NCBI GenBank assembly: GCA_009785335.1
Contig: WQWM01000005.1
Coordinates: 24,597-88,596, forward strand
Length of the DNA: 64,000 nucleotides
From: Oscillospiraceae bacterium
Lineage (GTDB): Bacteria; Bacillota; Clostridia; Oscillospirales; Acutalibacteraceae
Direction: 5' to 3'
Below, piece after piece: positions 6,818-41,661 of the stretch (positions within the stretch are counted from its first letter, which is position 1; the number at the start of each line of letters is the position of its first letter). The notes beneath the pieces are model-generated. The model was not told the origin of the DNA. It worked only from the letters and a program-made list of their open reading frames with translations, and did not search any database. A program made the position numbers and the translations under genes.

Positions 6818-8212
6818 ATGTCGACCGAACGTATTATTGCTATCTTGCTTTCCATTGGTCTGCTTGGGGGCTTGCTAGGCTTTGGCATCTTCAGCATTGC
6901 AACTGCCAACACCATGCGCCCCGGCGACAGCATTGAACTGCAGCTTGACGAAGTGCAAACATTTAACAATATCGTGCTGCGGGAACCCGGCGTTGCTTAT
7001 GGACAACCGGGTAATGTCCGTCTGTTCCATATTGAAGCATACCTCGACGGGCAGTGGGAGAAAATCTATGGCAGCGATGTGATTGGCGCGTTTCGCATGT
7101 GCGTGGTTGACGAAGTGCAAGCGTCGGCCATTCGCTTGACGATTGCAGAAACCGCAAGACGCCGCCGCGTGCAAGTGCCTGAGATGGAAGTTGCGCTGCA
7201 AGAGCCCGTGGAGCGGGATGCCCCCTTCCGCGTGGTGGGCTACTTCCATCCAAATGTGTTCATTTATGATGACATTGCGAACTACGCCGACCAGTTTGAC
7301 ACGGTAACCCATGCGATTTACATCGGCAACACACAACTGTTTGCCGACGAAGATGGTCGCCCAACACTGGTGCGCAACGCTGCTTCGCCGCAAAACATCG
7401 CCGATTTGCAAGCCGCAATTGGTGACCGCGACGTGAAGCTTTTCGTATCACTGACTTGCGGCGAGCGCATCAACGGCTTAAACCCGCTGACCGATGACCC
7501 AGAAGACATTGCGCGCCTTGCACAACAGGCCTTTGACATTGCGATGGAACACGGGCTTGCTGGGGTGGAAGTGAACTTTGAAGGCACTTGGGCGAACAGC
7601 CGTGCTCATCGCGCGGGCTATAGCATGTTGATTGAACAGCTCGGCTCCATGCTGCACGAAGTTGGCAAGCAAATCATGGTTTCGGTCATTCCGTCATATC
7701 GCTTTACTGTGCAGGCCCTGGAGACTCTCGACTATATCAACATCATGACCTATGACCACAGCGACACCGAACAGGTGTGGCATTCCACCTATAACGCCAT
7801 GCTGCGCGATATTTATCTGTTGGCTGTGCGCGGCGTGCCGCTGATTGACGCGCAGGGCAATAACCTCACATGTGCATGTGCACACATGCCCTTCCCGCGG
7901 GAAAGACTCAATGGCGGCGTGCCGTTTTATGGCATGGGCAATCTGGGCGGCGTGCGCGAATGGAACAGAACGTTTTCATTCCAGCACATCTATCGCCAAG
8001 CTGACGGCGACTTTAATCCCCACGCTAACTACTGCTTTGTGACGTATTCCTACTACAACGGCCCAACAACCATCCGCGACAAAACAGCTTATATGATGAT
8101 TCATGCGGACATTGGGGGTATTATGATTTGGGCGCTGAACCACGATGTGGAATTTGAGAATGAGCATTCGTTGCTGCGGACGATTCAGAATACGATTGAC
8201 ATGTTTTCGTAG
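6818..8212 (+). CDS. glycoside hydrolase family 18-like TIM-barrel protein with N-terminal anchor and discoidin-like domain
   Basis: 464-aa ORF behind consensus promoter; GH18-like strands (FRVVGYF.., LFVSL.., GLAGVEVNFEG, INIMTYDH, IGGIMIWAL); the DxxDxDxE box reads AGVEVNFE. Confidence 0.6.
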   Translation: MSTERIIAILLSIGLLGGLLGFGIFSIATANTMRPGDSIELQLDEVQTFNNIVLREPGVAYGQPGNVRLFHIEAYLDGQWEKIYGSDVIGAFRMCVVDEVQASAIRLTIAETARRRRVQVPEMEVALQEPVERDAPFRVVGYFHPNVFIYDDIANYADQFDTVTHAIYIGNTQLFADEDGRPTLVRNAASPQNIADLQAAIGDRDVKLFVSLTCGERINGLNPLTDDPEDIARLAQQAFDIAMEHGLAGVEVNFEGTWANSRAHRAGYSMLIEQLGSMLHEVGKQIMVSVIPSYRFTVQALETLDYINIMTYDHSDTEQVWHSTYNAMLRDIYLLAVRGVPLIDAQGNNLTCACAHMPFPRERLNGGVPFYGMGNLGGVREWNRTFSFQHIYRQADGDFNPHANYCFVTYSYYNGPTTIRDKTAYMMIHADIGGIMIWALNHDVEFENEHSLLRTIQNTIDMFS

Positions 8213-8798: not shown

Positions 8799-9265
8799 CA
8801 CCTGCGGTGCGGCTCCGTCGCTTCGCTGTGTTCTATTACAGCAAGAAAAAGCTTAAGGTAGGGACGTGTTCCCTGCCTTTTGTCACGTCTGCGGTGAGCA
8901 CGGTCGCTTCGCTGTGTTCTATTAATTATAAGCAAGACAATCGCTCTGCGAAGACCACCCCGCGCCTGCGGGCGCAGCCCTCCACACCCACCCCACAAAG
9001 CAGACTTTGCGGGGGCCCCGCGGAGGGAATTGGGGATTAAGGAGAAAACGACAGCGAAACTTTCGGCGGGATGTAGGGGCGGCTTGCAAGCCACCCGCGA
9101 TGACCACTTATGCCAATATTTTTGCCCGGGCGGCAATTTTGCCGCCCCTACAGGCACTGAATAGCCGAAAGCGACAGAAAAAACCTCGCTCCGCGAGCCT
9201 TCCTCACCCCTCGCGGCTCGGGGAGCTCCTTCCAGGGGAAGGAGCTGAGGTTTAAAAGAATAATG
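8799..9265. repeat. repeat mosaic beginning with Fam-D immediately after rpmB stop; REP doublet ~9072-9152; Fam-B
   Basis: Module identity. Confidence 0.8.
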
Positions 9266-13580: not shown

Positions 13581-14318
13581 ATGGCGAAGAAAATCTTGGC
13601 GATTGCCCTGTCGCTGGCGTTCGTGTTGACGTTCGGCTTCATGGTAATGGCTGATTACGGCAATGTAAGCATTGTTGCTTCGAGCGGCACCGTAACTGGC
13701 GACACTGGCACTGCTCCAGATGCAGACAGCGAAACTGTTGATGCGGGCACCGAACCTGAAGACAGCGAATCTGTTGACGCAGGCACCGAACCTGAAGACA
13801 GCGAATCTGTTGACGCAGGCACCGAACCTGAAGACAGCGAAACTGCTGCTGAAGGCACCGTAGCTGGCGACAGCGAAACTGCTGCTGAAGGCACCGTAGC
13901 TGGCGACAGCGAAACTGCTGCTGAAGGCACCGAACCTGAAGACAGCGAAACAGGCGACGTGCTCGGCGGTTTCGACACCGAAACCGAAGATGACGAATCT
14001 GAAGTAGGCGGCGGCATCGACACCGAAACCGAAGATGACCAATCTGAAGTAGGCGGCATCGACACCGAAACCGGAGCTGGCGAAACAGAAACTGAAGTAG
14101 CAGACAGCGAAACAGAACTCGATGTGGAAACTGAAGTTTTGGGCGGCATCGACACCGAAACCGACACCGAGACTGAAATTGACACCGAAACTGAAGCAGG
14201 CGGCACAACCGGCGGCCACGATTGGGGCACCTTCCTGCGCGCTTGGGGCTGGAGCACTCTGGCTTCTTGGGTTGTAATGGCTATCACCATCGTTATCGCG
14301 TTCTTCGTAACCCGCTAA
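13581..14318 (+). CDS. secreted, C-terminally anchored acidic-repeat protein (245 aa), cassette 1
   Basis: Signal peptide MAKKILAIALSLAFVLTFGFMVMA; 12-aa D/E/T/S repeats; W-rich box FLRAWGWSTLASWV plus TM ending AFFVTR; own promoter. Confidence 0.75.
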   Translation: MAKKILAIALSLAFVLTFGFMVMADYGNVSIVASSGTVTGDTGTAPDADSETVDAGTEPEDSESVDAGTEPEDSESVDAGTEPEDSETAAEGTVAGDSETAAEGTVAGDSETAAEGTEPEDSETGDVLGGFDTETEDDESEVGGGIDTETEDDQSEVGGIDTETGAGETETEVADSETELDVETEVLGGIDTETDTETEIDTETEAGGTTGGHDWGTFLRAWGWSTLASWVVMAITIVIAFFVTR

Positions 14319-19850: not shown

Positions 19851-19936
19851 AATCGCTCGCGAGCCTTCCTCAGACCGCACGGCGCGGCCAGCTCCTTCCG
19901 GAGGAAAGAGCTGAGGTTTAAAAGGATCAACCGACA
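19851..19936. repeat. Fam-B module
   Basis: TCGCTCGCGAGCCTTCCTCAG..CCAGCTCCTTCCGGAGGAAAGAGC. Confidence 0.75.
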
Positions 19937-23672: not shown

Positions 23673-23692
23673 GGCTGGAAAGGATGTGCGTC

Positions 23693-24721
23693 ATGAGCTT
23701 TACGTTCATTGACTTATTTGCAGGTATTGGTGGTTTCCATCAGGCGGCTGTTGTGCTTGGTGGAAATTGTGTGTTTGCCTGTGAAATTGACACGGAAGCA
23801 AGAAGAGCATATGTGGAAAACTACGGATTAGAGCCACATGGTGACGTTATGAAAATTAACGCAAATGAAATTCCGTACCATGATATTTTGTTTGCGGGCT
23901 TTCCTTGCCAGCCATTTAGTATCATTGGTAATCGTTTGGGTTTTGACGATATTCGTGGGACACTGTTTTTTGAAATCACAAGAATTTTGAAAGCTAAAAA
24001 GCCAAAGATGTTCTTGCTTGAAAATGTAAAGCAATTGAGTCGGCATGACAACGGAAAAACATTGCAGACTATAATAGCTGCCTTAGAGGAAATTGGGTAT
24101 AGCGTTCAATGGAAAATCCTTAATGCGCTTGATTATGGGTTGCCACAAAAGAGAGAAAGAACATTGATAGTTGGTTTTCTAGACCATTCTGTTGAATTCT
24201 CGTTTCCTCAACCAATTGGTACTGGTTGTTTAAACGATATATTAGAAAATGATGATGATGTTCACGAGAAATATTTCGCAAGTCAACGCATTGTTGAAAA
24301 GCGACAGCAAATGCATCAAAGCGATCATGATATGAGCATATGGCATGAAAACAAAAGTGGAAATATCACTAGCTATCCTTACTCATGCGCATTGCGTGCT
24401 GGTGCTTCATACAACTACTTGCTTGTGAATGGAAAGCGGCGCTTGACTCCGCGAGAAATGCTTAGACTGCAAGGATTTCCTGATACATTCAAGATAGTGT
24501 GCAATGATGGACAGACAAGAAAACAAGCAGGAAACGCAGTGCCGGTGAATGTGGTTAAAGCCATGTTAAAGGAGATGTTGCATGCACAGACCGAAGCTTC
24601 GAGACAACAAAGGGAAAGCACCGTTCGAGTTGTATCCACTCGGACAAATTCCAAACGCTGCCATAATAGAGATCAGCAAATGGATGACATATCATTTCGC
24701 CATAGGAAAGTCAGATATTAA
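23693..24721 (+). CDS. DNA (cytosine-5)-methyltransferase
   Basis: Motifs I FIDLFAGIGGF, IV GFPCQPFS, VI ENV, VIII QKRERTLIVGF, IX RLTPREMLRLQGFP, X GNAVPVNV; architecture like M.HhaI-class enzymes; specificity not deducible. Confidence 0.9.
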   Translation: MSFTFIDLFAGIGGFHQAAVVLGGNCVFACEIDTEARRAYVENYGLEPHGDVMKINANEIPYHDILFAGFPCQPFSIIGNRLGFDDIRGTLFFEITRILKAKKPKMFLLENVKQLSRHDNGKTLQTIIAALEEIGYSVQWKILNALDYGLPQKRERTLIVGFLDHSVEFSFPQPIGTGCLNDILENDDDVHEKYFASQRIVEKRQQMHQSDHDMSIWHENKSGNITSYPYSCALRAGASYNYLLVNGKRRLTPREMLRLQGFPDTFKIVCNDGQTRKQAGNAVPVNVVKAMLKEMLHAQTEASRQQRESTVRVVSTRTNSKRCHNRDQQMDDISFRHRKVRY

Positions 24722-25319
24722 TGGCGAAGATTGGGGTGATATTTTTTCAAAGGCAATTGATGGTCAACATCTTGGGAAACCCGTTGGCTTAGCTGATGTT
24801 GTGCACGAGGGGATGGCGTGGTCTGTAAAGTCTGTGAAAATGACTAAGCCGCATGAGAGAAAGAAAGCAAGAGTTATTTCTGGACGATGCTCACCAGACT
24901 ATTCTTATGGTATTTCAAATCCGCACGAAGACATTCAGCAAACAGGAACTGCTGTGCTTTCTATTTACAACGAACGGATTAATATAGCCAAAGACTTGTA
25001 TGAGCCGCTACGTACCGTTATTTTGGTGCGTGACTTCAATGCGCTTGAATTTTCTCTTTTTGAGCATGATACTGTTCGTTTTGTCACATCGGAATATGTG
25101 TGGAAAGCGAATAAGAATAGCAACTTAGAAGGTTATCACGTTGAAACCGGCCGTCATTGTTTTACATGGCAGCCGCATGGCTCTCAATTCACCGTACTAT
25201 ATGACATCCCGGCATATGCATGCAAATTCAAAATCAAGCGTCCAGCTGTGTTTGATGCCGATGAAACTTTGCGACAAATTGGTTTTGACGAGAGCTGGGT
25301 TGTGGTTATGAGTACATAA
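24582..25319 (+). CDS. putative type II restriction endonuclease (245 aa), cognate of the m5C methyltransferase
   Basis: AAAGGAG SD 6 nt before ATG; overlaps MTase 3' end; possible PD..(S/E)xK-like LADVV..AWSVKSVK; AT-rich; call by position plus motif (inference). Confidence 0.55.
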   Translation: MHRPKLRDNKGKAPFELYPLGQIPNAAIIEISKWMTYHFAIGKSDINGEDWGDIFSKAIDGQHLGKPVGLADVVHEGMAWSVKSVKMTKPHERKKARVISGRCSPDYSYGISNPHEDIQQTGTAVLSIYNERINIAKDLYEPLRTVILVRDFNALEFSLFEHDTVRFVTSEYVWKANKNSNLEGYHVETGRHCFTWQPHGSQFTVLYDIPAYACKFKIKRPAVFDADETLRQIGFDESWVVVMST

Positions 25320-25360: not shown

Positions 25361-26188
25361 CTAGAACCCAAACACGCTAAAGCTGGTGAAGCCAGTGATG
25401 AGCGCGACAATGGCAATCAAAGCCAGGTGCGCAGGATAGAAGCCGTAGAATAGCCATTTTGAACGCTTGCCGCGTTCGCCATTGAAGTTTTTGATGAGCA
25501 GCGCAGCAATGCCACAAAACACTGGGAAGAACAGCGATGAGATGATTACATTTGTGTTGCCCAGCATGCCATAAAGCATGTCGCGCTGTGCTTGAGCGAA
25601 CTCGGCGGACATCATGGGGCCGTCGGCATAGAGGTAAGGCGTGACAGCAAGAATACCCCACACGGAAAAAGCAGCAATGACTAACCACAGCCCGCCAGCC
25701 ACAATACCGGGCACCAGCCGCCGTGCAGTTTCGTTTTTGATCACATGATACAACAGCACCACAATGGGGGCAAAGAATAGCCAATCGAAAAACAGTGCCA
25801 TGGGAATGGATACGATCACGAAGATGAGGACAAAGACTACTTTGAGGGCTGCTTTGTGTTTGAGTTTGTCATAGATGAACAGCAACAACAAGCTGACGAT
25901 GATGGCGAACATGATGTTGAAGCGGAATAGTCCCAACGATAGCATATAGAAGGGGATGGCGATGGTGCCGAAGATGGCCAGCCGAAGGATGTATCGCTTG
26001 AGATTGGACGTGTGCTTGTAGCCCTCGACGACAAAGTAGCCCAGAATGGGGAACGCCAGCCCACCGGCGGCATACATGGGGATGAGCAACCACAGGGGCA
26101 AGATATCTTGCCATGGATAAAGCGCATGGTGCAAGAACATGCCAATCATGGCGATCCATTTGAGTTGGTGTGCGTTGAATTTGAACAT
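25361..26188 (-). CDS. TraX family membrane protein (acyltransferase-like), copy 1
   Basis: 275 aa polytopic; MFKFNAHQLKWIAMIGMFLHH...VVEGYKHTSNLKRYILRL typical TraX N-terminus. Confidence 0.8.
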   Translation of the reverse strand: MFKFNAHQLKWIAMIGMFLHHALYPWQDILPLWLLIPMYAAGGLAFPILGYFVVEGYKHTSNLKRYILRLAIFGTIAIPFYMLSLGLFRFNIMFAIIVSLLLLFIYDKLKHKAALKVVFVLIFVIVSIPMALFFDWLFFAPIVVLLYHVIKNETARRLVPGIVAGGLWLVIAAFSVWGILAVTPYLYADGPMMSAEFAQAQRDMLYGMLGNTNVIISSLFFPVFCGIAALLIKNFNGERGKRSKWLFYGFYPAHLALIAIVALITGFTSFSVFGF

Positions 26189-26955
26189 AGATTATTTTTC
26201 CTTTCAGTTTGATAGTACCAAATCTCCACCGTTACACAGAACACAACGGTTGGAATCATGACAGTCAGCATCGGAGAAATCCGACCTTCGCCTTGCCAGA
26301 GCCCTGGAAAATTAGAGGCGACATGCATAATGAAAACAGGCACAAGAGAATGATATTTTTTAAAGAGCATCACAAACGCACGGTGCATGAAAAACCAGTT
26401 GACCAGCAACAACATAAAGGTGATATCCCACAGGGGTATGCCGCCTACTAATCGCGATGGAATGTGCGCTAAGGCAAACAACACTGCCCCCAGATTGATG
26501 GCCCAAGCATCGTTTTTGACTAAGCCATATAATCTGGTTTGAATGAAACCGACAAAGCTGATATATTCTCGCACAGCCCAAAGCATCACATTGGCTAACG
26601 CAAATAGGAAAGAACCTAAGGCGTTTAATATCCAGCCGCCTGTGATGCCTGGCACAACCCTGCTAAACAAAAAAATGGGTGCAAATAACAACCCAAGGCC
26701 AATTGCCGAAAGAAGCTTTTGCTTGTGCAGACCGATGGAAGCGAGGCTTTGTTTTCTGAACTTAACGATCGCAACCACAATTAAAATATCAATCACGCAG
26801 GTGATAGCAATGATAAGGTGCCAATCCTCTAAAATCTGCCCAGACCCGCCAGAGAAATGTGAATAGCTTAAACTCACCGCAAAATCGCGTAAGATGAAGT
26901 ATGCAAAATAGGCCAGTGCGATGATGGCATCTTTTTTGCTGTGCATAGCGGTCAT
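26146..26955 (-). CDS. CPBP family intramembrane metalloprotease (CAAX protease/Abi-type)
   Basis: Start at MTAMHSKK (GAAAGG SD); motif 1 variant VREYISFVGF, motif 2 VLFALAH, motif 3 HVASN; polytopic. Confidence 0.7.
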   Translation of the reverse strand: MTAMHSKKDAIIALAYFAYFILRDFAVSLSYSHFSGGSGQILEDWHLIIAITCVIDILIVVAIVKFRKQSLASIGLHKQKLLSAIGLGLLFAPIFLFSRVVPGITGGWILNALGSFLFALANVMLWAVREYISFVGFIQTRLYGLVKNDAWAINLGAVLFALAHIPSRLVGGIPLWDITFMLLLVNWFFMHRAFVMLFKKYHSLVPVFIMHVASNFPGLWQGEGRISPMLTVMIPTVVFCVTVEIWYYQTERKNNLCSNSTHTNSNGSP

Positions 26956-26969
26956 AAGCGTCAACCTTT

Positions 26970-27773
26970 CTAGACGAATGCGCGAATGAGCAACATGCCC
27001 AACCACAGCACCACAAAATGCACGGGATAAATAACATAAAACAGCCATTTCATGGTTTTGCTGCGCTTGCCACGCTCGCCGCTATAGCGCGTGAGCAGGA
27101 AGGCTGCAATCACAATGCCGATTTGGAAGGTCATCTGCACGGGCGAAAATTGGTAGTTCATCAATCGGGGCAGATTTACACCAGCCTCGGCAAACTGTGC
27201 TGCCAGCTCTGGTGTAGTCATTGCGGAGGTGAAGAAGCCGATGATCGTAAATATCACTGCGGCAAACACAGGCGGCACCACGCGGCGTGCGGTTTCGTTT
27301 TTGATGATGTGCGCCATGAGCACCATGGCCACGCCCACGAAGTACCATTCTAAGATAACAAGAGACAGCGGCGCAATGACGAGCACGAACAGGAGCCAAA
27401 ACAACACTTTGCTTTTCATTTTGTCATACATCGTGAGCACCAGCAAGCTTGCCACGATGTTAAACATGATGTTGAAGAAGGGATATAGCATGGGATTGCC
27501 GCCGCCCATGGGGATGGTAAGGACAAGGATGTGGAAGGGCAGCGCAAGCAGCCCAAACAACAGCACACGCAAGATGTATCGCTTGTGGTTGGAGGTATGC
27601 TTATAGCCTTCGGCGACGAAATAGGCCATGATGGGGAAGGTGAGGCCGCCGGCGATATACATGGGGAAGGCGAGCCAAATGGGGATGATTTCCCACCAGG
27701 CGATGACCATGTGGCTGGTGATCATGCCGATGACGGCCATGAGTTTGAGTTGGTTGGCGTTGAGTTTGAACAT
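26970..27773 (-). CDS. TraX family membrane protein, copy 2
   Basis: Start MFKLNANQLKLMAVIGM; roughly half identical by eye to copy 1 (FVAEGYKHTSNHKRYILRV, IKNETARR, GERGKRSK shared). Confidence 0.8.
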   Translation of the reverse strand: MFKLNANQLKLMAVIGMITSHMVIAWWEIIPIWLAFPMYIAGGLTFPIMAYFVAEGYKHTSNHKRYILRVLLFGLLALPFHILVLTIPMGGGNPMLYPFFNIMFNIVASLLVLTMYDKMKSKVLFWLLFVLVIAPLSLVILEWYFVGVAMVLMAHIIKNETARRVVPPVFAAVIFTIIGFFTSAMTTPELAAQFAEAGVNLPRLMNYQFSPVQMTFQIGIVIAAFLLTRYSGERGKRSKTMKWLFYVIYPVHFVVLWLGMLLIRAFV

Positions 27774-27983
27774 GAATGTAATTTCCTTTCGGTCATTGAT
27801 TATACATATAGTATAACGCACCTGCGGTGAGCAGTTCGCGCATATAAGTTTGATTAGCGCAAACTATGATGCACGCGTTATAGTATGTACCTAGTATAAC
27901 GCAAACTGGAGGGTTTTGCTAGCGATTTTGGGTGGAACTTTCGCAACTGGCGGTTGCGGGGCGGGGGAATGTGCGTAGACAAG

Positions 27984-28068
27984 TCGCTTCGCGAGCCTTC
28001 CTCAGTCGCACCCGAGGTGCGCCAGCTCCTTCCAGGGGAAGGAGCTAAGGCTTAAGAGGATGACGACA
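27984..28068. repeat. Fam-B module between mini-protein array and TraX operon
   Basis: TCGCTTCGCGAGCCTTCCTCAGTCGCACCCGAGGTGCGCCAGCTCCTTCCAGGGGAAGGAGC. Confidence 0.8.
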
Positions 28069-28080
28069 ATAAAATTTTAA

Positions 28081-28108
28081 CAGGCGGCTACGATAATGTA
28101 GCCGCCTG
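28081..28108 (-). terminator. terminator after mini-protein array
   Basis: CAGGCGGCTAC-GATAAT-GTAGCCGCCTG; T/A-rich run downstream on minus strand. Confidence 0.65.
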
Positions 28109-28124
28109 TGGGTTATTGTGTTGG

Positions 28125-28295
28125 TTAGCTGAGAAACCATTGAATTAAACTGACGAAGCTATAGAGCGCAAAGGCGGCGGGAACGATCAAAATAGACCAA
28201 AATGGCAGGTAAAAATGAAGACCTATGTTAAGCATTAGCCCAAAGAAGAACGTTGAAAAAGCAGCCAAAGCTGAACCGATGATAATCCATTGCAT
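28125..28295 (-). CDS. mini-membrane protein, class B (56 aa), array gene 6
   Basis: SD AGGAGG, 12 nt after gene 5 stop; MQWIIIGSALAAFSTFFFGLMLNIGLHFYLPFWSILIVPAAFALYSFVSLIQWFLS; hairpin terminator follows. Confidence 0.6.
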   Translation of the reverse strand: MQWIIIGSALAAFSTFFFGLMLNIGLHFYLPFWSILIVPAAFALYSFVSLIQWFLS

Positions 28296-28307
28296 AAGCG
28301 GTACCTC

Positions 28308-28460
28308 CTAATAAAAGATAGCGGAAATGAGCCACATGAGCAAGATGGCCAGCAGGGGAATGAGCGCAGCAATGGTGGCGATGGTGAACCCCCAACCTGC
28401 AACTGTGTTGCCGAGGTAGAAATGACCGTGGGCGATGAAGCCGAGACCAAGAGCTAGCAT
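28308..28460 (-). CDS. mini-membrane protein, class A (50 aa), array gene 5
   Basis: SD GAAAGGA; MLALGLGFIAHGHFYLGNTVAGWGFTIATIAALIPLLAILLMWLISAIFY. Confidence 0.6.
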   Translation of the reverse strand: MLALGLGFIAHGHFYLGNTVAGWGFTIATIAALIPLLAILLMWLISAIFY

Positions 28461-28488
28461 TCCGAGATCATCCTTTCTGTTGGTGTGG

Positions 28489-28656
28489 TTAGCGGAAGAT
28501 GCGCACCAGACTGAAGGTGCCGAAAATGAACAGGGCAGTAGATAATAAGGAAAGGAGGGCTGGGGTGATGTTGGGCGTATGTCCTATCTGAATAAAAACA
28601 AAAAATGTGCCAATGGCTGCAATAAAGGAACCAAGTGAAATTAAAATTGGGTGCAT
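28489..28656 (-). CDS. mini-membrane protein, class B (55 aa), array gene 4
   Basis: SD GGAAGGAAAA; MHPILISLGSFIAAIGTFFVFIQIGHTPNITPALLSLLSTALFIFGTFSLVRIFR. Confidence 0.6.
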   Translation of the reverse strand: MHPILISLGSFIAAIGTFFVFIQIGHTPNITPALLSLLSTALFIFGTFSLVRIFR

Positions 28657-28693
28657 ATTAGTTTTTCCTTCCTGTTGTGTCTGTGAGGGCTAG

Positions 28694-28873
28694 TTAGCTG
28701 AAAATCCACCGCCAAAAAAAGTGAAAAAGTATGCCGAAACCAGCAATCGCAGCGGAGACAAGCCAAATAAAATATGCGGTGAAAGGACCAAGCAAAGCAG
28801 TGTTTTGAAAGCTCAAACTCGACAAGAACAAGACAGAGGCTAAGATAAGTGAGCTGATAGAGATAAAATTCAT
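28694..28873 (-). CDS. mini-membrane protein, class C (59 aa), array gene 3
   Basis: SD GAAAGGA; MNFISISSLILASVLFLSSLSFQNTALLGPFTAYFIWLVSAAIAGFGILFHFFWRWIFS. Confidence 0.55.
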   Translation of the reverse strand: MNFISISSLILASVLFLSSLSFQNTALLGPFTAYFIWLVSAAIAGFGILFHFFWRWIFS

Positions 28874-28903
28874 GCAATCAAATCCTTTCTGTTTATGTGC
28901 AGG

Positions 28904-29068
28904 TTAGAAGAAAATCCATCGACCTAAATTGAACATGCCGTAAATAAACATGGCAACAGACAACAAAAACGGAGGGGCGGTGAAGAAGTTGGGCGCATGT
29001 CCCATCATAACAAAAGCGAAGAATGCGCCAATGGCTGTGGCAAACGAACCAATTATAATCCAAAGCAT
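28904..29068 (-). CDS. mini-membrane protein, class B (54 aa), array gene 2
   Basis: SD AAGGAGGAG 5 nt upstream, 12 nt after gene 1 stop; MLWIIIGSFATAIGAFFAFVMMGHAPNFFTAPPFLLSVAMFIYGMFNLGRWIFF. Confidence 0.6.
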   Translation of the reverse strand: MLWIIIGSFATAIGAFFAFVMMGHAPNFFTAPPFLLSVAMFIYGMFNLGRWIFF

Positions 29069-29080
29069 ATTTACTCCTCC

Positions 29081-29266
29081 TTACCAAAAAATAGTGAAAA
29101 GTAGACCTATCAACAACAAAAGTAGCGGTACAAGCAGCACGGCCACAGTGGCAAGGGAAAAAATCCAGCCGCCAACCGAGTTGCCTAGAGAAAAATGACC
29201 AAAGGCCACCAGCCCAAGACCTGCGGGGATGAGCAAGAGCACAGGAAAAATCGAATCTACTAGCAT
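29081..29266 (-). CDS. mini-membrane protein, class A (61 aa), array gene 1
   Basis: Track ORF; SD AAAGGA 8 nt upstream; MLVDSIFPVLLLIPAGLGLVAFGHFSLGNSVGGWIFSLATVAVLLVPLLLLLIGLLFTIFW. Confidence 0.65.
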   Translation of the reverse strand: MLVDSIFPVLLLIPAGLGLVAFGHFSLGNSVGGWIFSLATVAVLLVPLLLLLIGLLFTIFW

Positions 29267-29384
29267 ATGACCAGTCCTTTCGGCATAATATTACGAGCGT
29301 GTGACCGATATGTTACTAATCTGTCGCGCGGATGGAAGAAATTCCTCACATTATAGTGAAGTAAATTAAGTAATAGTTTTATTC

Positions 29385-29540
29385 GCTCACCACCCTCACC
29401 CCTCGCGACTCGGGGAGCTCCCTCCCAAGGAGGGAGCGTGGGCTTGCAGCCGAATGTTACGATGTCGTTATATCCTTAATCCTCCGCTCCCTCTTCTAGA
29501 GGGAGCTCCCCGAGCCGCGAGGGGTGAGGGTGGTGAATTT
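29385..29540. repeat. ~150-bp inverted pair of Fam-B-variant modules (large palindrome)
   Basis: CACCACCCTCACCCCTCGCGACTCGGGGAGCTCCCTC .. GAGGGAGCTCCCCGAGCCGCGAGGGGTGAGGGTGGTG. Confidence 0.8.
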
Positions 29541-29600
29541 AAGCGTCGTTGAAAATGTCAAAATATAAAAAAATGGGCGGATAAAAATCCACCCATAGAC

Positions 29601-30968
29601 TTAATTTATCAAATATGGCGCGCCGGACACGAAATCCATGGGGTTGAGGGCCGTGCGCGAGCCGTCGGCGTTGAAGCGATCAACTTGGAAGTGCAGGTGC
29701 GGGCCTGTGGAATTGCCGGTATTGCCCATCATACCCAGATGTTGACCGGCGGAGATGGGCATGTCGCGCCGCAAGCCGGGCGCAAACGACCGCAGATGCA
29801 TATATACCGTTTGGATGCGGCCATTGGCGGGGGCAAAGTGGCCGTGGTAGATGACCACATAGTTGCCCATGCTGGCGTTGAAGCCAAACGCTGCCACCAC
29901 GCCGCACAATGCGGCATGAATGGTCCAGTTGGGTGCCCAGTTGTTGGCGATGGAGACATCTACCCCGCGGTGCACGCGGCCGCCACGGAAGGGCTCGCTT
30001 GCACCAAAACGGCTGGTGATGCGTGCGCCGTGGTGGGGGAAGGGCCAAACCATTTGCCCGGTGTTTTGCACGCTGCCGATTTCACCGGCTTGAATGCGTT
30101 GGTTGATGATGGCGTTGATATCACGCTGGGCTTGTTCCATGGCATTTTGTTCACGCCGGATCATTTCCTCGACATCGCGGCGATTGCGGCCAATGCTGTT
30201 GATAATGCCTTGAATTTCGTTGCGGATTTCGTTGATGCGCTGGATTTCTTCGTCGAGCACGGCTTGTTCTTCGCGCTGGCGCAGCAGGCTTTGTGTGACG
30301 GCAAAGGTGTCGTCTTGTAGCTGTTCGCGCTGCGCTTGCAGGCGCTGTTGTTCTTCACGCAGTTGCTGTTGCAGCACGGCCATGTGCGCCATTTCGTCTT
30401 CCAGGTCTTCGCGCAGTTGGGCATCGGACTCGGCCTGGCGGGTGATGAACTCCGTGACGGTGAGGATGCCAGAGAGGTCTTCACTGGCCAGCAGCAATTG
30501 CAGATTGCTGACAGGCCCATTGATGTATTGCTGGCGCAGGCGTTGCATCAGCAGCTCTTGCATGGCATGGATTTGCTCAGTGCGTTCTTGCGTTTCGGCA
30601 TACAGCAGGTCGATTTGTTCCTGGCTTTCTTCAATGCCTGCGTTTAGCTCACGAATGCGGGCGTTGAGGTCATCAATTTGTGCGGTGAGTGCGTTGACTT
30701 CAACTTGGATGAGATTGATTTTTTCCTGCACGGCTTGCACTTCAGCATCCAAAGCGGGCAGCAGGGCTTCTTGGCTGGCTTGTTGGGCGCGCAGGTTGGT
30801 TACCTCGGTGCGTTGTTCGTCGATGCGGCGTTGAATCTGCTGCATTTCGTTGCGGATTTCGCGTTCGGTGCGGGCAGAGGGAAACACGGTGGTGGTGAAA
30901 AGCAGGGTGAGTGTGAGAATAATAGAAATGGCGCGCTTGGGAAGTCCCCCCCTGTCGCGTTGCGACAT
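29601..30968 (-). CDS. M23 family metallopeptidase with long coiled-coil N-domain (EnvC/PcsB-like FtsEX partner)
   Basis: C-terminal HRGVD and GPHLHFQV LytM motifs; about 300-aa Q/E/L coiled coil; anchor AISIILTLTLLFTTTVF; directly downstream of ftsX. Start uncertain (30968, 30989 or upstream) because the 5' region is repeat DNA. Confidence 0.85.
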   Translation of the reverse strand: MSQRDRGGLPKRAISIILTLTLLFTTTVFPSARTEREIRNEMQQIQRRIDEQRTEVTNLRAQQASQEALLPALDAEVQAVQEKINLIQVEVNALTAQIDDLNARIRELNAGIEESQEQIDLLYAETQERTEQIHAMQELLMQRLRQQYINGPVSNLQLLLASEDLSGILTVTEFITRQAESDAQLREDLEDEMAHMAVLQQQLREEQQRLQAQREQLQDDTFAVTQSLLRQREEQAVLDEEIQRINEIRNEIQGIINSIGRNRRDVEEMIRREQNAMEQAQRDINAIINQRIQAGEIGSVQNTGQMVWPFPHHGARITSRFGASEPFRGGRVHRGVDVSIANNWAPNWTIHAALCGVVAAFGFNASMGNYVVIYHGHFAPANGRIQTVYMHLRSFAPGLRRDMPISAGQHLGMMGNTGNSTGPHLHFQVDRFNADGSRTALNPMDFVSGAPYLIN

Positions 30969-31075
30969 CCCCCCTACAGGGGGGACCATGGCAAAGCCGC
31001 GACGTTTGATTTTCGCCAGAGACCCCCCTGTAGGGGGGCAAGTGCCGTCAAGGACGGCACGGGGGGGTGGCAACC
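30935..31075. repeat. Fam-E-type palindromic modules between ftsX and the M23 peptidase body
   Basis: CCCCCCTGTCGCGTTGCGACATCCCCCCTACAGGGGGG.. read directly. Confidence 0.7.
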
Positions 31076-32010
31076 TACGCTTGAGTTTCAGTTTCATAGA
31101 CATTCTCCTTGAGGTAGCGCGTGATGGACAGCATGGAACCGCCACCACCGGTGAGCAGACCAAGACCAAAAAACACGATGAGCAACAACGGCAGTTGTGC
31201 CAGCAGCGAAAGTGGTGTGAAAGTGGGCAACAGCACGCTCAGCAGAGAGCCAAGCAGACGAGCCACGCCGAAGAAATAGACCAAGCAAACAATACCCAAT
31301 GCAATGGCAGAGCCCGCAAAGCCGATAATCAGCCCTTCGACCAAAAAAGGCCAGCGAATGAACGCCGGAGCAGCACCAACGCTTTTCATCACCTTGATTT
31401 CTTGCTGGCGGGTGAACATGGTGGTTTGCACGGTGCTGGAAATGATGAAAATCGACACTAACAGCAGCACGATAATCAATGCGCCGCCCACGATGAGGAA
31501 CGCACGCTCGATGGTGGCCAGTTGCTGCGCCACGCCTTGCATGTGCCCCACGGATGTGATGGCTTGGTCGAAATCTTCCAGCTGGCGAACGGTGGCGTTG
31601 AAGTATTCTAGTTGCTGGCTTGCGGGGCTGATTTCAAAGCTGGGGGGCAGGAAATCTTCGCGGGCGCCGTCCAGCAGGCGAAAATCGTCGGCATAAGTGA
31701 CACGCATGTGTTCGAGGGCTTCGGCCTGCGACACATAGCGCACCTCGCGTACATTATCCAGTGTGGCAATACGGCGTTCAAGATCGTTGCGTTGGTTTTC
31801 TTCTAGTCCCGGCACGAGAAACACGCGGATGACATTGCGTGAACTGAAGTCTTGAAAGGCACGGTTGAAGTCGCTGGCGGTGAGAAAAACTAGGCCGATG
31901 AGCATTAAACAACTAACCAACACCAGCACAGAGGCCATGCTCATGGTGCGGTTGGACGAGATATTGCGAAAGCCCATGCGGGTTAAATATCCGCGGCCGT
32001 GTTTTGCCAT
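31075..32010 (-). CDS. ftsX: cell-division ABC transporter permease FtsX
   Basis: Start MAKHGRGYLTRMGFRNISSNR; 1 TM, extracellular loop, 3 TM layout; track ORF 5' extension is a REP. Confidence 0.85.
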   Translation of the reverse strand: MAKHGRGYLTRMGFRNISSNRTMSMASVLVLVSCLMLIGLVFLTASDFNRAFQDFSSRNVIRVFLVPGLEENQRNDLERRIATLDNVREVRYVSQAEALEHMRVTYADDFRLLDGAREDFLPPSFEISPASQQLEYFNATVRQLEDFDQAITSVGHMQGVAQQLATIERAFLIVGGALIIVLLLVSIFIISSTVQTTMFTRQQEIKVMKSVGAAPAFIRWPFLVEGLIIGFAGSAIALGIVCLVYFFGVARLLGSLLSVLLPTFTPLSLLAQLPLLLIVFFGLGLLTGGGGSMLSITRYLKENVYETETQA

Positions 32011-32070
32011 GGGGGTCTCCTTGTGATGGTGAAGTATAGGAATAAAACTTAATGTATCAGATTTTGAGGT

Positions 32071-32098
32071 CCCGGGCGGATTTACATCCGCCCCTACA
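32071..32098. repeat. REP hairpin flanking RAYT-1 (3' side)
   Basis: CCCGGGCGGATTTACATCCGCCCCTACA. Confidence 0.9.
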
Positions 32099-32167
32099 GG
32101 TGGAGATTTTTTCAAATTTGGTGAATTTGTCAATTTGAAGACGTTCCCTGCAAGGTGGAGGGCGATT

Positions 32168-32641
32168 TTATATGAAATAAAACCTATCTTTTTCCCATGT
32201 TGCGGGGTTTTTGAAAATATATTCTTCTATGCATCGTCGTTCATCATCGTCATGCAGGATATTATCAAAGAAAGAACGCTGCCAAAGTGAAAACCCAATT
32301 CTTCGCGTAACTGCGGCTTTATACGCACGGACAATAGAGGAAAGGTCGGGCGGATTCATATCCGCTCCTACAGGTTGTGGCTTGTTTAAGCTGATGATAA
32401 AGTGAGCATGGTTAGGCATGATGATAGATGCTCCTAAGTCAACATTGAGCATAGATGCGGTTTTGCGCAACTCGTCTTGAGCGACCTTGCCATATTCACT
32501 TAACTGCATTTTACCGTCTATCACTTGGCCAAACATCATCTCGCCATTTTTCACACATATGGTAACAAAATATATACCAGTGCGAGAATAGTCGTATCCA
32601 CGGAGCCGCAAAGAGTTTTTTCGAATGCGATCATTTTTCAT
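32168..32641 (-). CDS. REP-associated tyrosine transposase (RAYT, IS200/IS605-type Y1 HUH), copy 1
   Basis: 157 aa; HUH PNHAHFII; WQRSFFDNIL..EEYIFKNPATW tyrosine region; flanked by inverted REPs and carries one REP in frame. Confidence 0.85.
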   Translation of the reverse strand: MKNDRIRKNSLRLRGYDYSRTGIYFVTICVKNGEMMFGQVIDGKMQLSEYGKVAQDELRKTASMLNVDLGASIIMPNHAHFIISLNKPQPVGADMNPPDLSSIVRAYKAAVTRRIGFSLWQRSFFDNILHDDDERRCIEEYIFKNPATWEKDRFYFI

Positions 32642-38911: not shown

Positions 38912-39075
38912 TGTGCTCCGCACCCCTCCCTCACCCCGCGCGACGCGGGGAGCTCCCTCTACAAGAGGGAGCTGAGGCTTGCTTTTTCAACTTATATCAA
39001 TCAGCAGTGCCTGTAATAGGACATAGCGAAGCGGGAAAAGTTTTTTGCGCAACTTTTTTTCAAAAAAGTTGCAAG
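38912..39075. repeat. Fam-B variant plus Fam-C end with GCAAC-T7-C-A6-GTTGC palindrome
   Basis: Palindrome ends 11 nt before the SGNH hydrolase ATG. Confidence 0.75.
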
Positions 39076-41525: not shown

Positions 41526-41661
41526 TCACCGCGAAGATGGTGTGCGGGTTTGGTCGCTCCGCGAACCTTCCTCACCCCTCGCGGCTCGGGGAGCTCCTTC
41601 CTCAGGAAGGAGCTGGCACGCCTCGGGCGTGACTGAGGAAGGTTCGCGGAGCGAGACCAGT
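41526..41661. repeat. full-length palindromic Fam-B element (23-bp perfect terminal inverted arms)
   Basis: GGTCGCTCCGCGAACCTTCCTCA .. TGAGGAAGGTTCGCGGAGCGAGACC. Confidence 0.85.

Follow-up and report, generated by a model that had tools for sequence, protein, structure and literature searches.

The stretch of DNA analysed here, 64,000 nucleotides long and referred to throughout as the window, is part of a 138-kb contig belonging to a metagenome-assembled genome (MAG) of an Oscillospiraceae bacterium. Between positions 28125 and 29266 it carries six short open reading frames (ORFs), arranged head to tail on the minus strand and each beginning with ATG. An original prediction, made from the sequence alone, had placed six mini-genes for two-helix peptides at these positions, and all six are found there. 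Five of them (g1, g2, g4, g5 and g6) are annotated by NCBI as hypothetical proteins MCL2445762 to MCL2445758, and g3 was skipped by both the NCBI and the ENA gene callers. The genes, the signals next to them and the repeats on either side are given below in the direction of transcription; A, B and C denote sequence classes, and L001 is a syntenic site in a related genome.

29384-29536: GC-rich palindromic element, resembling a repetitive extragenic palindrome (REP) or miniature inverted-repeat transposable element (MITE), in the interval from the terminator of the upstream M23 peptidase gene to g1; 59-nt arms, 86% complementary; absent from the L001 site
29350-29355, minus strand: TATAAT box about 85 nt 5' of g1, the sole -10-like element there, with no good -35
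29081-29266, minus strand: g1, 61 aa, class A (NCBI MCL2445762.1, FWD06_03220)
28904-29068, minus strand: g2, 54 aa, class B (MCL2445761.1)
28694-28873, minus strand: g3, 59 aa, class C, an orphan two-helix ORF with no NCBI or ENA annotation
28489-28656, minus strand: g4, 55 aa, class B (MCL2445760.1), a solo B with no A directly upstream
28308-28460, minus strand: g5, 50 aa, class A, short form (MCL2445759.1)
28125-28295, minus strand: g6, 56 aa, class B (MCL2445758.1)
28080-28109, minus strand: strong intrinsic terminator after g6, with a 13-bp stem, ending the six-gene unit
27929-28074: second copy of a REP-like repeat, in the interval from the cluster terminator to a TraX-family gene; absent from the L001 site

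A purine-rich Shine-Dalgarno (SD) sequence lies 5-10 nt 5' of the ATG in each of the six genes, as had been claimed, and the intergenic spacers from g1 to g6 measure 12, 30, 37, 28 and 12 nt, the first and last of these being exactly the gap that had been reported for both A-B pairs (g1-g2 and g5-g6). The A stop codon leads straight into the B SD in both pairs, as TAAGGAGG in g1-g2 and as TAGGAGG in g5-g6; the SD of g2 (TAAGGAGG) abuts the g1 stop, and g2 starts 12 nt past that stop. The terminator stem at 28080-28109 is kept after the orthologous B gene in L001, and the M23 gene upstream of the cluster has its own terminator at 29573-29596. A scan of the window against Rfam returned no riboswitch, small RNA or other match.

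Homologues were sought among some 5.8 billion protein clusters and by an exhaustive HMMER scan of 1.84 billion representatives. The exhaustive search with a class A profile returned just three further proteins at E<=0.001, all of them short class A-like peptides, and a scan of metagenomes with a DNA pattern added one more lineage; the variability of the class B alignment precluded such a pattern for that class. A GTDB scan with the M23 protein found nothing, and the class A pattern matched GTDB only at L014 4044-4148 (Sphingomonas MAG JAPJRE010000260.1), out of frame inside a larger unrelated gene; because this sole match is judged a chance one, we conclude that no GTDB species representative carries the family. 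The related cassettes outside the window are these:

L001/L002: one A-B pair, at the syntenic position
L005-L007: the second A-B pair of the L001 contig, 76 kb from the first
L003/L004/L010: B, TraX, A-B
L008/L009/L011: B, A-B, B
L013: an A::B fusion

Class B follows class A with complete consistency: seven of the seven class A genes found have a B gene next, at a distance of 12 nt in the window (twice), L003 and L008, 11 nt in L001 and 18 nt in L005, and in A-B pairs the stop codon of A lies inside or beside the SD of B. The converse does not hold, since B also occurs alone (at least four solo B genes), and A is never seen without a downstream B. Close orthologues exist for the second A-B unit of the window alone, with g5 sharing 87% identity with P0003 (L001 10001-10153) and g6 84% with P0008 (L001 10165-10335). 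The first unit has none, and g1 finds only distant counterparts, at 48-55% identity, in the class A genes of L003 and L008. The two units of the window are themselves deep paralogues (48% and about 30% identity). The original prediction had taken them for a duplicated two-gene unit; the repetition stands, but a recent local duplication does not, as the bicistron is old and conserved in four other lineages.

In the relatives, cassettes carry promoters of the form TTGAC[AT]-17-TATA[AC]T, close to the sigma-70 consensus, 25-35 nt 5' of the SD, and such a near-consensus promoter together with a terminator flanks the cassettes in L001, L005, L008 (two cassettes) and L013. The last of these, L013 5974-6231 (Ga0209755_10000377), is a natural in-frame fusion of 85 aa that joins helix 1 of class A and a GHFSVGN turn to almost the entire B, with its own TTGACT-17-TATAAT promoter. 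Like the second locus of L005, it adjoins a DUF1540 gene, and no TraX, CPBP or ftsX gene occurs near this second locus in either L005 or L013. Because the second locus, 76 kb away, has a different context, the A-B pair appears to work independently of its neighbours.

The division of the six genes into class A (g1, g5), class B (g2, g4, g6) and class C (g3), also part of the original prediction, agrees with independent profiles. Hidden Markov models (HMMs) for the classes were built solely from sequences of other genomes, with 3600 shuffles as the null, the best of which scored 12.8 bits. The class A model scored g1 at 58.5 bits and g5 at 60.3 bits, and the class B model scored g2, g4 and g6 at 40.8, 32.5 and 66.5 bits; pairwise identity is 48% between g1 and g5 and 53% between g2 and g4. 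A and B were rejected as distant homologues of one another, with an hhalign probability of 0.5% and cross-profile scores of about 0 bits. The orphan g3 matches neither class (-0.1 bits against the foreign-only B profile), and the 4.6 bits it obtained against a profile of all ten B sequences were reached by 52 of 2000 shuffles. Descent of g3 from B by divergence or as a frameshifted copy was likewise rejected: by profile, pairwise-shuffle and DNA comparison, only the SD region and the 3'-terminal 19 nt or so resemble the family. Because g3 has no detectable relation to A or B, a label of its own is fair.

Conservation falls in different places in the two classes. Class A is conserved around the turn, as AGLGLxx[FY]G[HFY][FI]SxG[NH]xxxGWIF (AGLGLxxFGHFSLGNxxxGWIF in g1), with a variable N-terminal extension and C-terminal half, and this motif is the best-conserved part of the system. 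Class B is conserved at both termini, with MxW[IV]xxG[SA]..AA.G at the start and G.FSL.RWIF[NS] at the end, around a hypervariable loop that differs in length and sequence; the GH.PN turn that had been pointed out in g2 and g4 is present in both. An A-B cassette can be defined by the class A motif GLG-x4-G-[HFY]-[FI]-S-x-G-[NH]-x3-GW with a class B gene (MxW..G...G.FSL.RWIF) 11-18 nt further on, a description that fits g1-g2, g5-g6, L001, L003, L005 and L008, with L013 as the fused form.

Selection on these reading frames is visible between genomes. The ratio of nonsynonymous to synonymous substitution rates (dN/dS) is 0.16 for g5 against L001_a, 0.10 for g6 against L001_b and 0.22 for L003_s1 against L008_s1, comparable to the 0.04-0.15 of the flanking M23, TraX and dnaN genes. 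Substitutions at codon positions 1, 2 and 3 number 4, 2 and 10 in the g5 pair and 10, 4 and 21 in the g6 pair, an excess at the third position, and the non-coding flanks diverge freely. Codon scoring of all six frames put the annotated one first in each of the six genes, with g3 the weakest and marginal. The frame conservation in relatives on which the original prediction had been made to depend is thus found, at dN/dS of 0.10-0.22, a pattern well past anything expected by chance, and its claim of real, separately translated genes is upheld by purifying selection across genomes. By this comparative sequence evidence, g1, g2, g4, g5 and g6 are established protein-coding genes under purifying selection. 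A coding status for g3 is plausible; the searches found no homologue of it anywhere, the sole other contig that could have supplied strain-level variants is 100% identical to the window, and the exact M23 product has no other record.

All the peptides are extremely hydrophobic, with a grand average of hydropathy (GRAVY) of 1.3-1.9, 0-2 charged residues, K+R of 0-2 per peptide, an isoelectric point mostly of 5-8.5 and no Cys. Class A peptides, with 0-1 basic residues and a GRAVY of 1.4-1.9, are neither amphipathic nor cationic. No signal peptide or double-glycine leader is present in the peptides, and helix 1 begins at the start. AlphaFold2, run on single chains with small family alignments, models class A (g1) as helices 2-27 and 31-60 joined by a G28-N29-S30 turn, at a predicted local distance difference test score (pLDDT) of 86.5, and class B (g2) as helices 2-21 and 31-53 joined by a 9-residue loop, at a pLDDT of 77. 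The peptides are accordingly described as predicted helical hairpins of two hydrophobic helices and a short turn, on which models, hydropathy and charge agree with the fold first proposed; the proposed absence of a leader and near-absence of charge are likewise seen. The further suggestion that these are integral mini-proteins and not classical cationic bacteriocins fares less completely: hairpin fold and near-zero charge favour it, and the choice of integral protein over bacteriocin is consistent with the data but not proven by them.

Scans of the six peptides, their relatives and class consensus sequences against Pfam, NCBIfam, PHROGs and PADLOC found nothing significant, and a PDB sequence search and Foldseek comparison of both models with the PDB gave only generic helical hairpins at E>1; for the class A model, Foldseek ranked V-ATPase subunit e first, without significance. 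No bacteriocin or immunity family of Pfam or NCBIfam was matched at E<=10, and PADLOC gave no match at E<=0.05 for the six peptides, the two neighbouring TraX proteins or the CPBP protein. As for holins, Phage_holin_3_6 was matched below threshold by three of 11 B proteins (best E 0.22), PHROGs gave nothing significant, and no charged tail was seen; no relatives of the cassettes were found in phages, plasmids or IMG/VR. The nearest approach to a named family is the TM2 domain (PF05154), a two-helix hairpin of about 50 residues whose model has a G-x-H-x-FYLG-like motif at the end of helix 1. It is the top Pfam match for g5 and its orthologue P0003 only, a near-identical pair with a resemblance in the FYLG motif, which score 13.7 and 15.6 bits against a gathering cut-off of 27.9. 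The match is absent from g1, P0009, P0010 and P0011, and the class A consensus scores 9.4 bits. The g1 model does have two transmembrane helices and a short linker, a generic feature and not a diagnostic one. The proteins are not filed under TM2, because the scores fall below the cut-off and only g5 and its orthologue match. The original prediction had assigned the peptides to no described family, and the failure of all these searches concurs; on present profile evidence, A and B are two previously undescribed, lineage-restricted families.

The main locus, near dnaN, has an ftsE-ftsX-M23 operon on one side and a set of TraX, CPBP (Rce1-like) and TraX genes on the other. In the window its flanking genes are as follows:

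31075-32133, minus strand: ftsX, just upstream of M23, with an FtsX_ECD domain
29601-31169, minus strand: coiled-coil M23 peptidase, EnvC/PcsB-like, with a probable true start at 30953 that gives 450 aa; conserved left flank
26970-27821, minus strand: TraX-family protein; conserved right flank
26146-27048, minus strand: CPBP/Rce1-like protein; conserved right flank
25361-26188, minus strand: second TraX-family protein; conserved right flank

The four syntenic genomes are congeneric and roughly equidistant, with amino-acid identities of 91-95% for DnaN, 81-84% for M23 and 85-96% for TraX and a synonymous divergence (dS) of 0.36-1.1 among neighbouring genes. The content of the interval is different in every one of them: six genes in the window, A-B in L001, B/TraX/A-B in L003 and B/A-B/B in L008. 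Apart from g5 and its L001 orthologue, the class A genes of the cassettes share a mutual identity of just 48-55% with saturated dS, against 81-96% for the flanks; between L003_s3 and L008_s2 the dS is 1.6, and it is 0.36 for the adjacent TraX. Because identity is so low and dS saturated, the cassettes are best regarded as old alleles or paralogues that were differentially retained or exchanged, not as fast-evolving orthologues. The window contig and the L008 contig, with different cassette sets, come from the same sample, ERZ27257300. Directly 5' of the A-B cassette in L003 lies a 51-codon chimeric ORF (7739-7894; also L010 4153-4308) whose first 17 residues are the N-terminus of TraX and whose last 34 or so are the C-terminus of M23, and which is the scar of a recombination between the two genes that flank the hotspot.

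Separation from the upstream operon also differs between genomes. Both the window and L001 have a terminator that parts M23 from the cassettes. The solo B of L003 and L008, by contrast, lies 24-36 nt past the M23 stop, and because no terminator stands between them this gene probably shares the ftsX-M23 transcript. The regions read cover about 10 kb to either side in L001, 8 kb upstream in L003 and, as the contig ends there, just 1.8 kb upstream in L008; they yielded no exporter gene, and the sole ABC genes in them are the division-type ftsE and ftsX. No PH-domain or DUF95-type gene was found in the regions read around the cassettes, and no type IV secretion system (T4SS) genes were found near the window or L001 locus.

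Some further features of the right flank were recorded. The downstream order is TraX-CPBP-TraX in the window (25361-27821) and L008, TraX-alpha/beta hydrolase-TraX-CPBP in L001 (10491-13468), and TraX only in L003. By eye, the CPBP protein of the window keeps the FxxxH and HxxxN motifs and shows RE where motif 1 normally reads EE. At 23684-25319, on the plus strand between dnaN and the TraX/CPBP genes, the window carries a gene for a C-5 cytosine DNA methylase (23684-24721), overlapped by a 245-aa ORF without family match, probably an inserted restriction-modification unit; L001 is without this pair, and dnaN there comes directly after CPBP. An element of about 45 nt, CCGCAACC-N3-5-GTTGC-N6-10-CCACCCAAAATCGCT(G/A)G, with a short hairpin, precedes the first TraX gene in four of four genomes. 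Its conservation exceeds that of the intergenic sequence around it, and it may act on TraX as a regulatory site or a leader. Its positions are:

27915-27960 of the window, minus strand: TraX-upstream element
10388-10432 of L001: TraX-upstream element
about 6815-6860 of L003: TraX-upstream element
about 2455-2500 of L008: TraX-upstream element

GC-rich palindromic REP/MITE-like repeats of several families are scattered over the intergenic DNA of the window, for example at 2281-2350, 9192-9261, 19858-19927, 27929-28074, 29384-29536, 38919-38988 and 41560-41629; they include a 70-nt unit in at least 14 copies and a 40-nt "CGGGCGG...CCGCCCCTACAGGT" hairpin in 15. Two repeat copies flank the mini-gene cluster, at sites that are empty in L001. 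Between ftsX and the next gene, a 157-aa ORF (32168-32641, minus strand) matches the REP-associated tyrosine transposase family NF047646 at 49 bits (E 6e-13), below the cut-off of 80 bits, and Pfam Y1_Tnp at E 1e-4. The 40-nt hairpin occurs close by, at 32062-32101 and 32336-32375, and the ORF may encode the enzyme behind REP proliferation. Elsewhere, at 13685-14116, a 36-nt (12-codon) unit is repeated in tandem, accompanied by related units of 42-45 nt; rich in GAA, GAC and ACC, these repeats presumably form an acidic region within a large ORF.

The explanation we favour, at a probability of roughly 45% and hence tentatively, is that A and B stay in the producer's own membrane and act there as a cognate A:B hetero-oligomer. 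It is preferred because of the coupled bicistron, the natural fusion, the small-residue faces of the helices, the extreme hydrophobicity and the failure to find an exporter. Both peptides would be inserted co-translationally into the cytoplasmic membrane as hairpins, and the coupled bicistron would deliver them in fixed proportion for assembly. Packing would proceed through Gly/Ala/Ser-rich helix faces, formed in A by the motif G-L-G-x4-G-x4-G-x4-G-W and in B by the termini MxW...G.FSL.RWIF, with the extra B paralogues as possible alternative partners. The unit behaves as a self-contained cassette, bearing its own promoter and terminator in relatives, at a recombination-prone hotspot between the ftsEX-M23 and TraX/CPBP envelope genes, and the six-gene operon of the window would have arisen by the joining of two such cassettes, both old, with a solo B and with C, the orphan. 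A non-secreted accessory or modulatory membrane complex, a proteolipid-like pair of small subunits, is favoured in this way over an exported toxin. Several observations weigh on the other side. The relatives are confined to four other metagenomic lineages, five with the window; the A:B stoichiometry cannot be obligatory, because B also occurs alone; strong cassette variation and deep allele divergence fit antagonism or addiction modules better than housekeeping accessory subunits, in which they are uncommon; and no promoter-like site was called 5' of g1 in the window, where no -35 is recognisable.

The variation in particular suggests another reading, in which A is a membrane-active hairpin effector, either an intramembrane addiction toxin or an uncharged leaderless bacteriocin, and B its cognate immunity or antitoxin membrane protein. 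Solo B genes would then be orphan immunity genes, with further immunity added by the downstream CPBP (Abi-like) gene; CPBP/Abi proteins confer bacteriocin immunity, and one is encoded nearby. Such an arrangement would account for the invariable presence of a B gene after A, against at least four B genes that stand alone, and for the greater number and variability of B, whose conserved termini enclose a hypervariable loop. It also suits old alleles and a cassette content that differs among congeneric genomes, the window and L008 organisms with their different sets in one sample included, as well as the strong stand-alone promoters, the TraX/M23 recombination scar beside the L003 cassette, and a fusion in L013 that drops half of A and retains nearly all of B. 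Yet the supposed effector has no amphipathic or cationic character, leader or Cys, its motif is the best conserved in the system, orthologues are under ordinary purifying selection, bacteriocin, immunity and holin families are unmatched, and the regions read contain no ABC exporter, PH-domain or DUF95-type gene. We know, moreover, of no protein-protein membrane toxin-antitoxin pair of this kind. On balance this reading is unlikely, if the strongest of the alternatives. Rated lower again is its fuller form, in which A-B would be an undescribed antagonism or addiction module of two hairpin micro-proteins, solo B genes would be acquired immunity, and cassettes would be swapped by homologous recombination at the M23/TraX hotspot among co-resident congeneric Oscillospiraceae.

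The conserved flanks invite two other explanations. One holds that the neighbouring TraX-type acyltransferases and CPBP protein act on the hairpin mini-proteins, or are their partners, with N-terminal acylation or F-pilin-like processing in a chromosomal acylation or maturation pathway. The window, L001, L003 and L008 all have TraX immediately downstream in the same orientation, the TraX family acetylates a protein substrate, F-pilin (PMC12423673), and the CPBP-like LnsB is required for N-acylation of lipoproteins in S. aureus (PMC7387801); the strong conservation of the B N-terminus MxW[IV]xxG and C-terminus RWIF[NS] would also fit. A terminator and, in relatives, a separate promoter nevertheless lie between the cassettes and TraX, the second locus (L005, L013) has neither TraX nor CPBP nearby, no propilin-like leader or cleavage site and no T4SS genes are found, and the adjacency may merely reflect a common recombination hotspot, so that we hold this explanation to be improbable. 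The other, which we place slightly behind it, looks to the M23 hydrolase and casts the peptides as holin/antiholin-like or autolysis-control peptides, or in a variant as small membrane cofactors of the FtsEX-M23 complex. Cofactors of that type are known for FtsEX-hydrolase complexes, SweC and SweD of B. subtilis among them, and a solo B probably shares its transcript with M23 in L003 and L008; to these can be added the sub-threshold Phage_holin_3_6 matches. But the M23 protein is a coiled-coil EnvC/PcsB-like protein in an ftsEX operon and not an endolysin, a terminator separates it from the cassettes in the window and L001, the second locus is unlinked to ftsEX, and a charged C-terminal tail, a phage context and a significant holin match are all lacking. 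Least probable is that some or all of the ORFs are non-coding chance frames in AT-rich intergenic DNA, an idea that concerns essentially g3, with its marginal coding score, its lack of homologues and its omission by two gene callers; for the other five genes it is countered by profile matches across genomes, SD sequences, promoters and terminators in relatives, a dN/dS well below 1 and the third-position excess of substitutions.

Small hydrophobic proteins are the least annotated share of bacterial proteomes, and here public annotation lacks one of the six genes, while none of them belongs to a known family. The reach of the finding is limited at present, the family being confined to a handful of uncultured gut Oscillospiraceae. 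Within them, the locus offers a computationally well-supported case of two new families of micro-proteins whose genes travel together, translationally coupled, with strong stand-alone expression signals, a natural fusion and cassette-like variation among sister species of one habitat. Should the peptides prove to be a toxin and its protector, or substrates of TraX and CPBP, they would constitute a new minimal membrane module.

Several known systems resemble the A-B pair in part. Loci for leaderless and two-peptide bacteriocins (class IIb, L50- and DD14-type) likewise have adjacent, co-transcribed genes for leaderless peptides, Gly-rich helix motifs and a strong promoter, and the hypervariable locus, orphan B-type genes and nearby CPBP gene add to the likeness. 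Known bacteriocins, however, are cationic, amphipathic and water-soluble, and their loci have dedicated exporters (PMC6131525, PMC10376788), whereas A and B, predicted to be uncharged hairpins that are transmembrane over their full length, match no family and have no exporter gene in the regions read around them. F-pilin (TraA) is also a small two-helix inner-membrane protein encoded near a TraX-family gene, but propilin is encoded in a T4SS operon and loses a long leader by cleavage before it is acetylated; A and B have no leader, T4SS genes or sequence similarity to it, and TraX adjoins the main cassette locus but not the second. Type I toxins and class II holins, too, are small hydrophobic membrane peptides, often in variable chromosomal cassettes. 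The former have one helix and the latter two or three, with a charged tail, RNA antitoxins or a phage lysis context, none of which was found here: A and B have two predicted helices and no tail, and Rfam matched no RNA antitoxin in the window.

Closest to the favoured membrane complex are the bacterial small membrane proteins that serve as accessory or regulatory subunits, for example CydX, KdpF, AcrZ and MgrB (reviewed in PMC12648545). These, and two-helix proteolipid subunits such as V-ATPase subunit e, are like A and B in being shorter than about 60 aa, almost uncharged, membrane-embedded and free of any enzymatic domain, with no sequence relation to them. Most characterised bacterial small subunits have just one helix and do not vary as cassettes, and their genes lie within the operon for the complex in question, whereas here two hairpins are encoded by a stand-alone bicistron. 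If A and B do form an accessory complex, they would add a paired-hairpin type to the known small membrane proteins.

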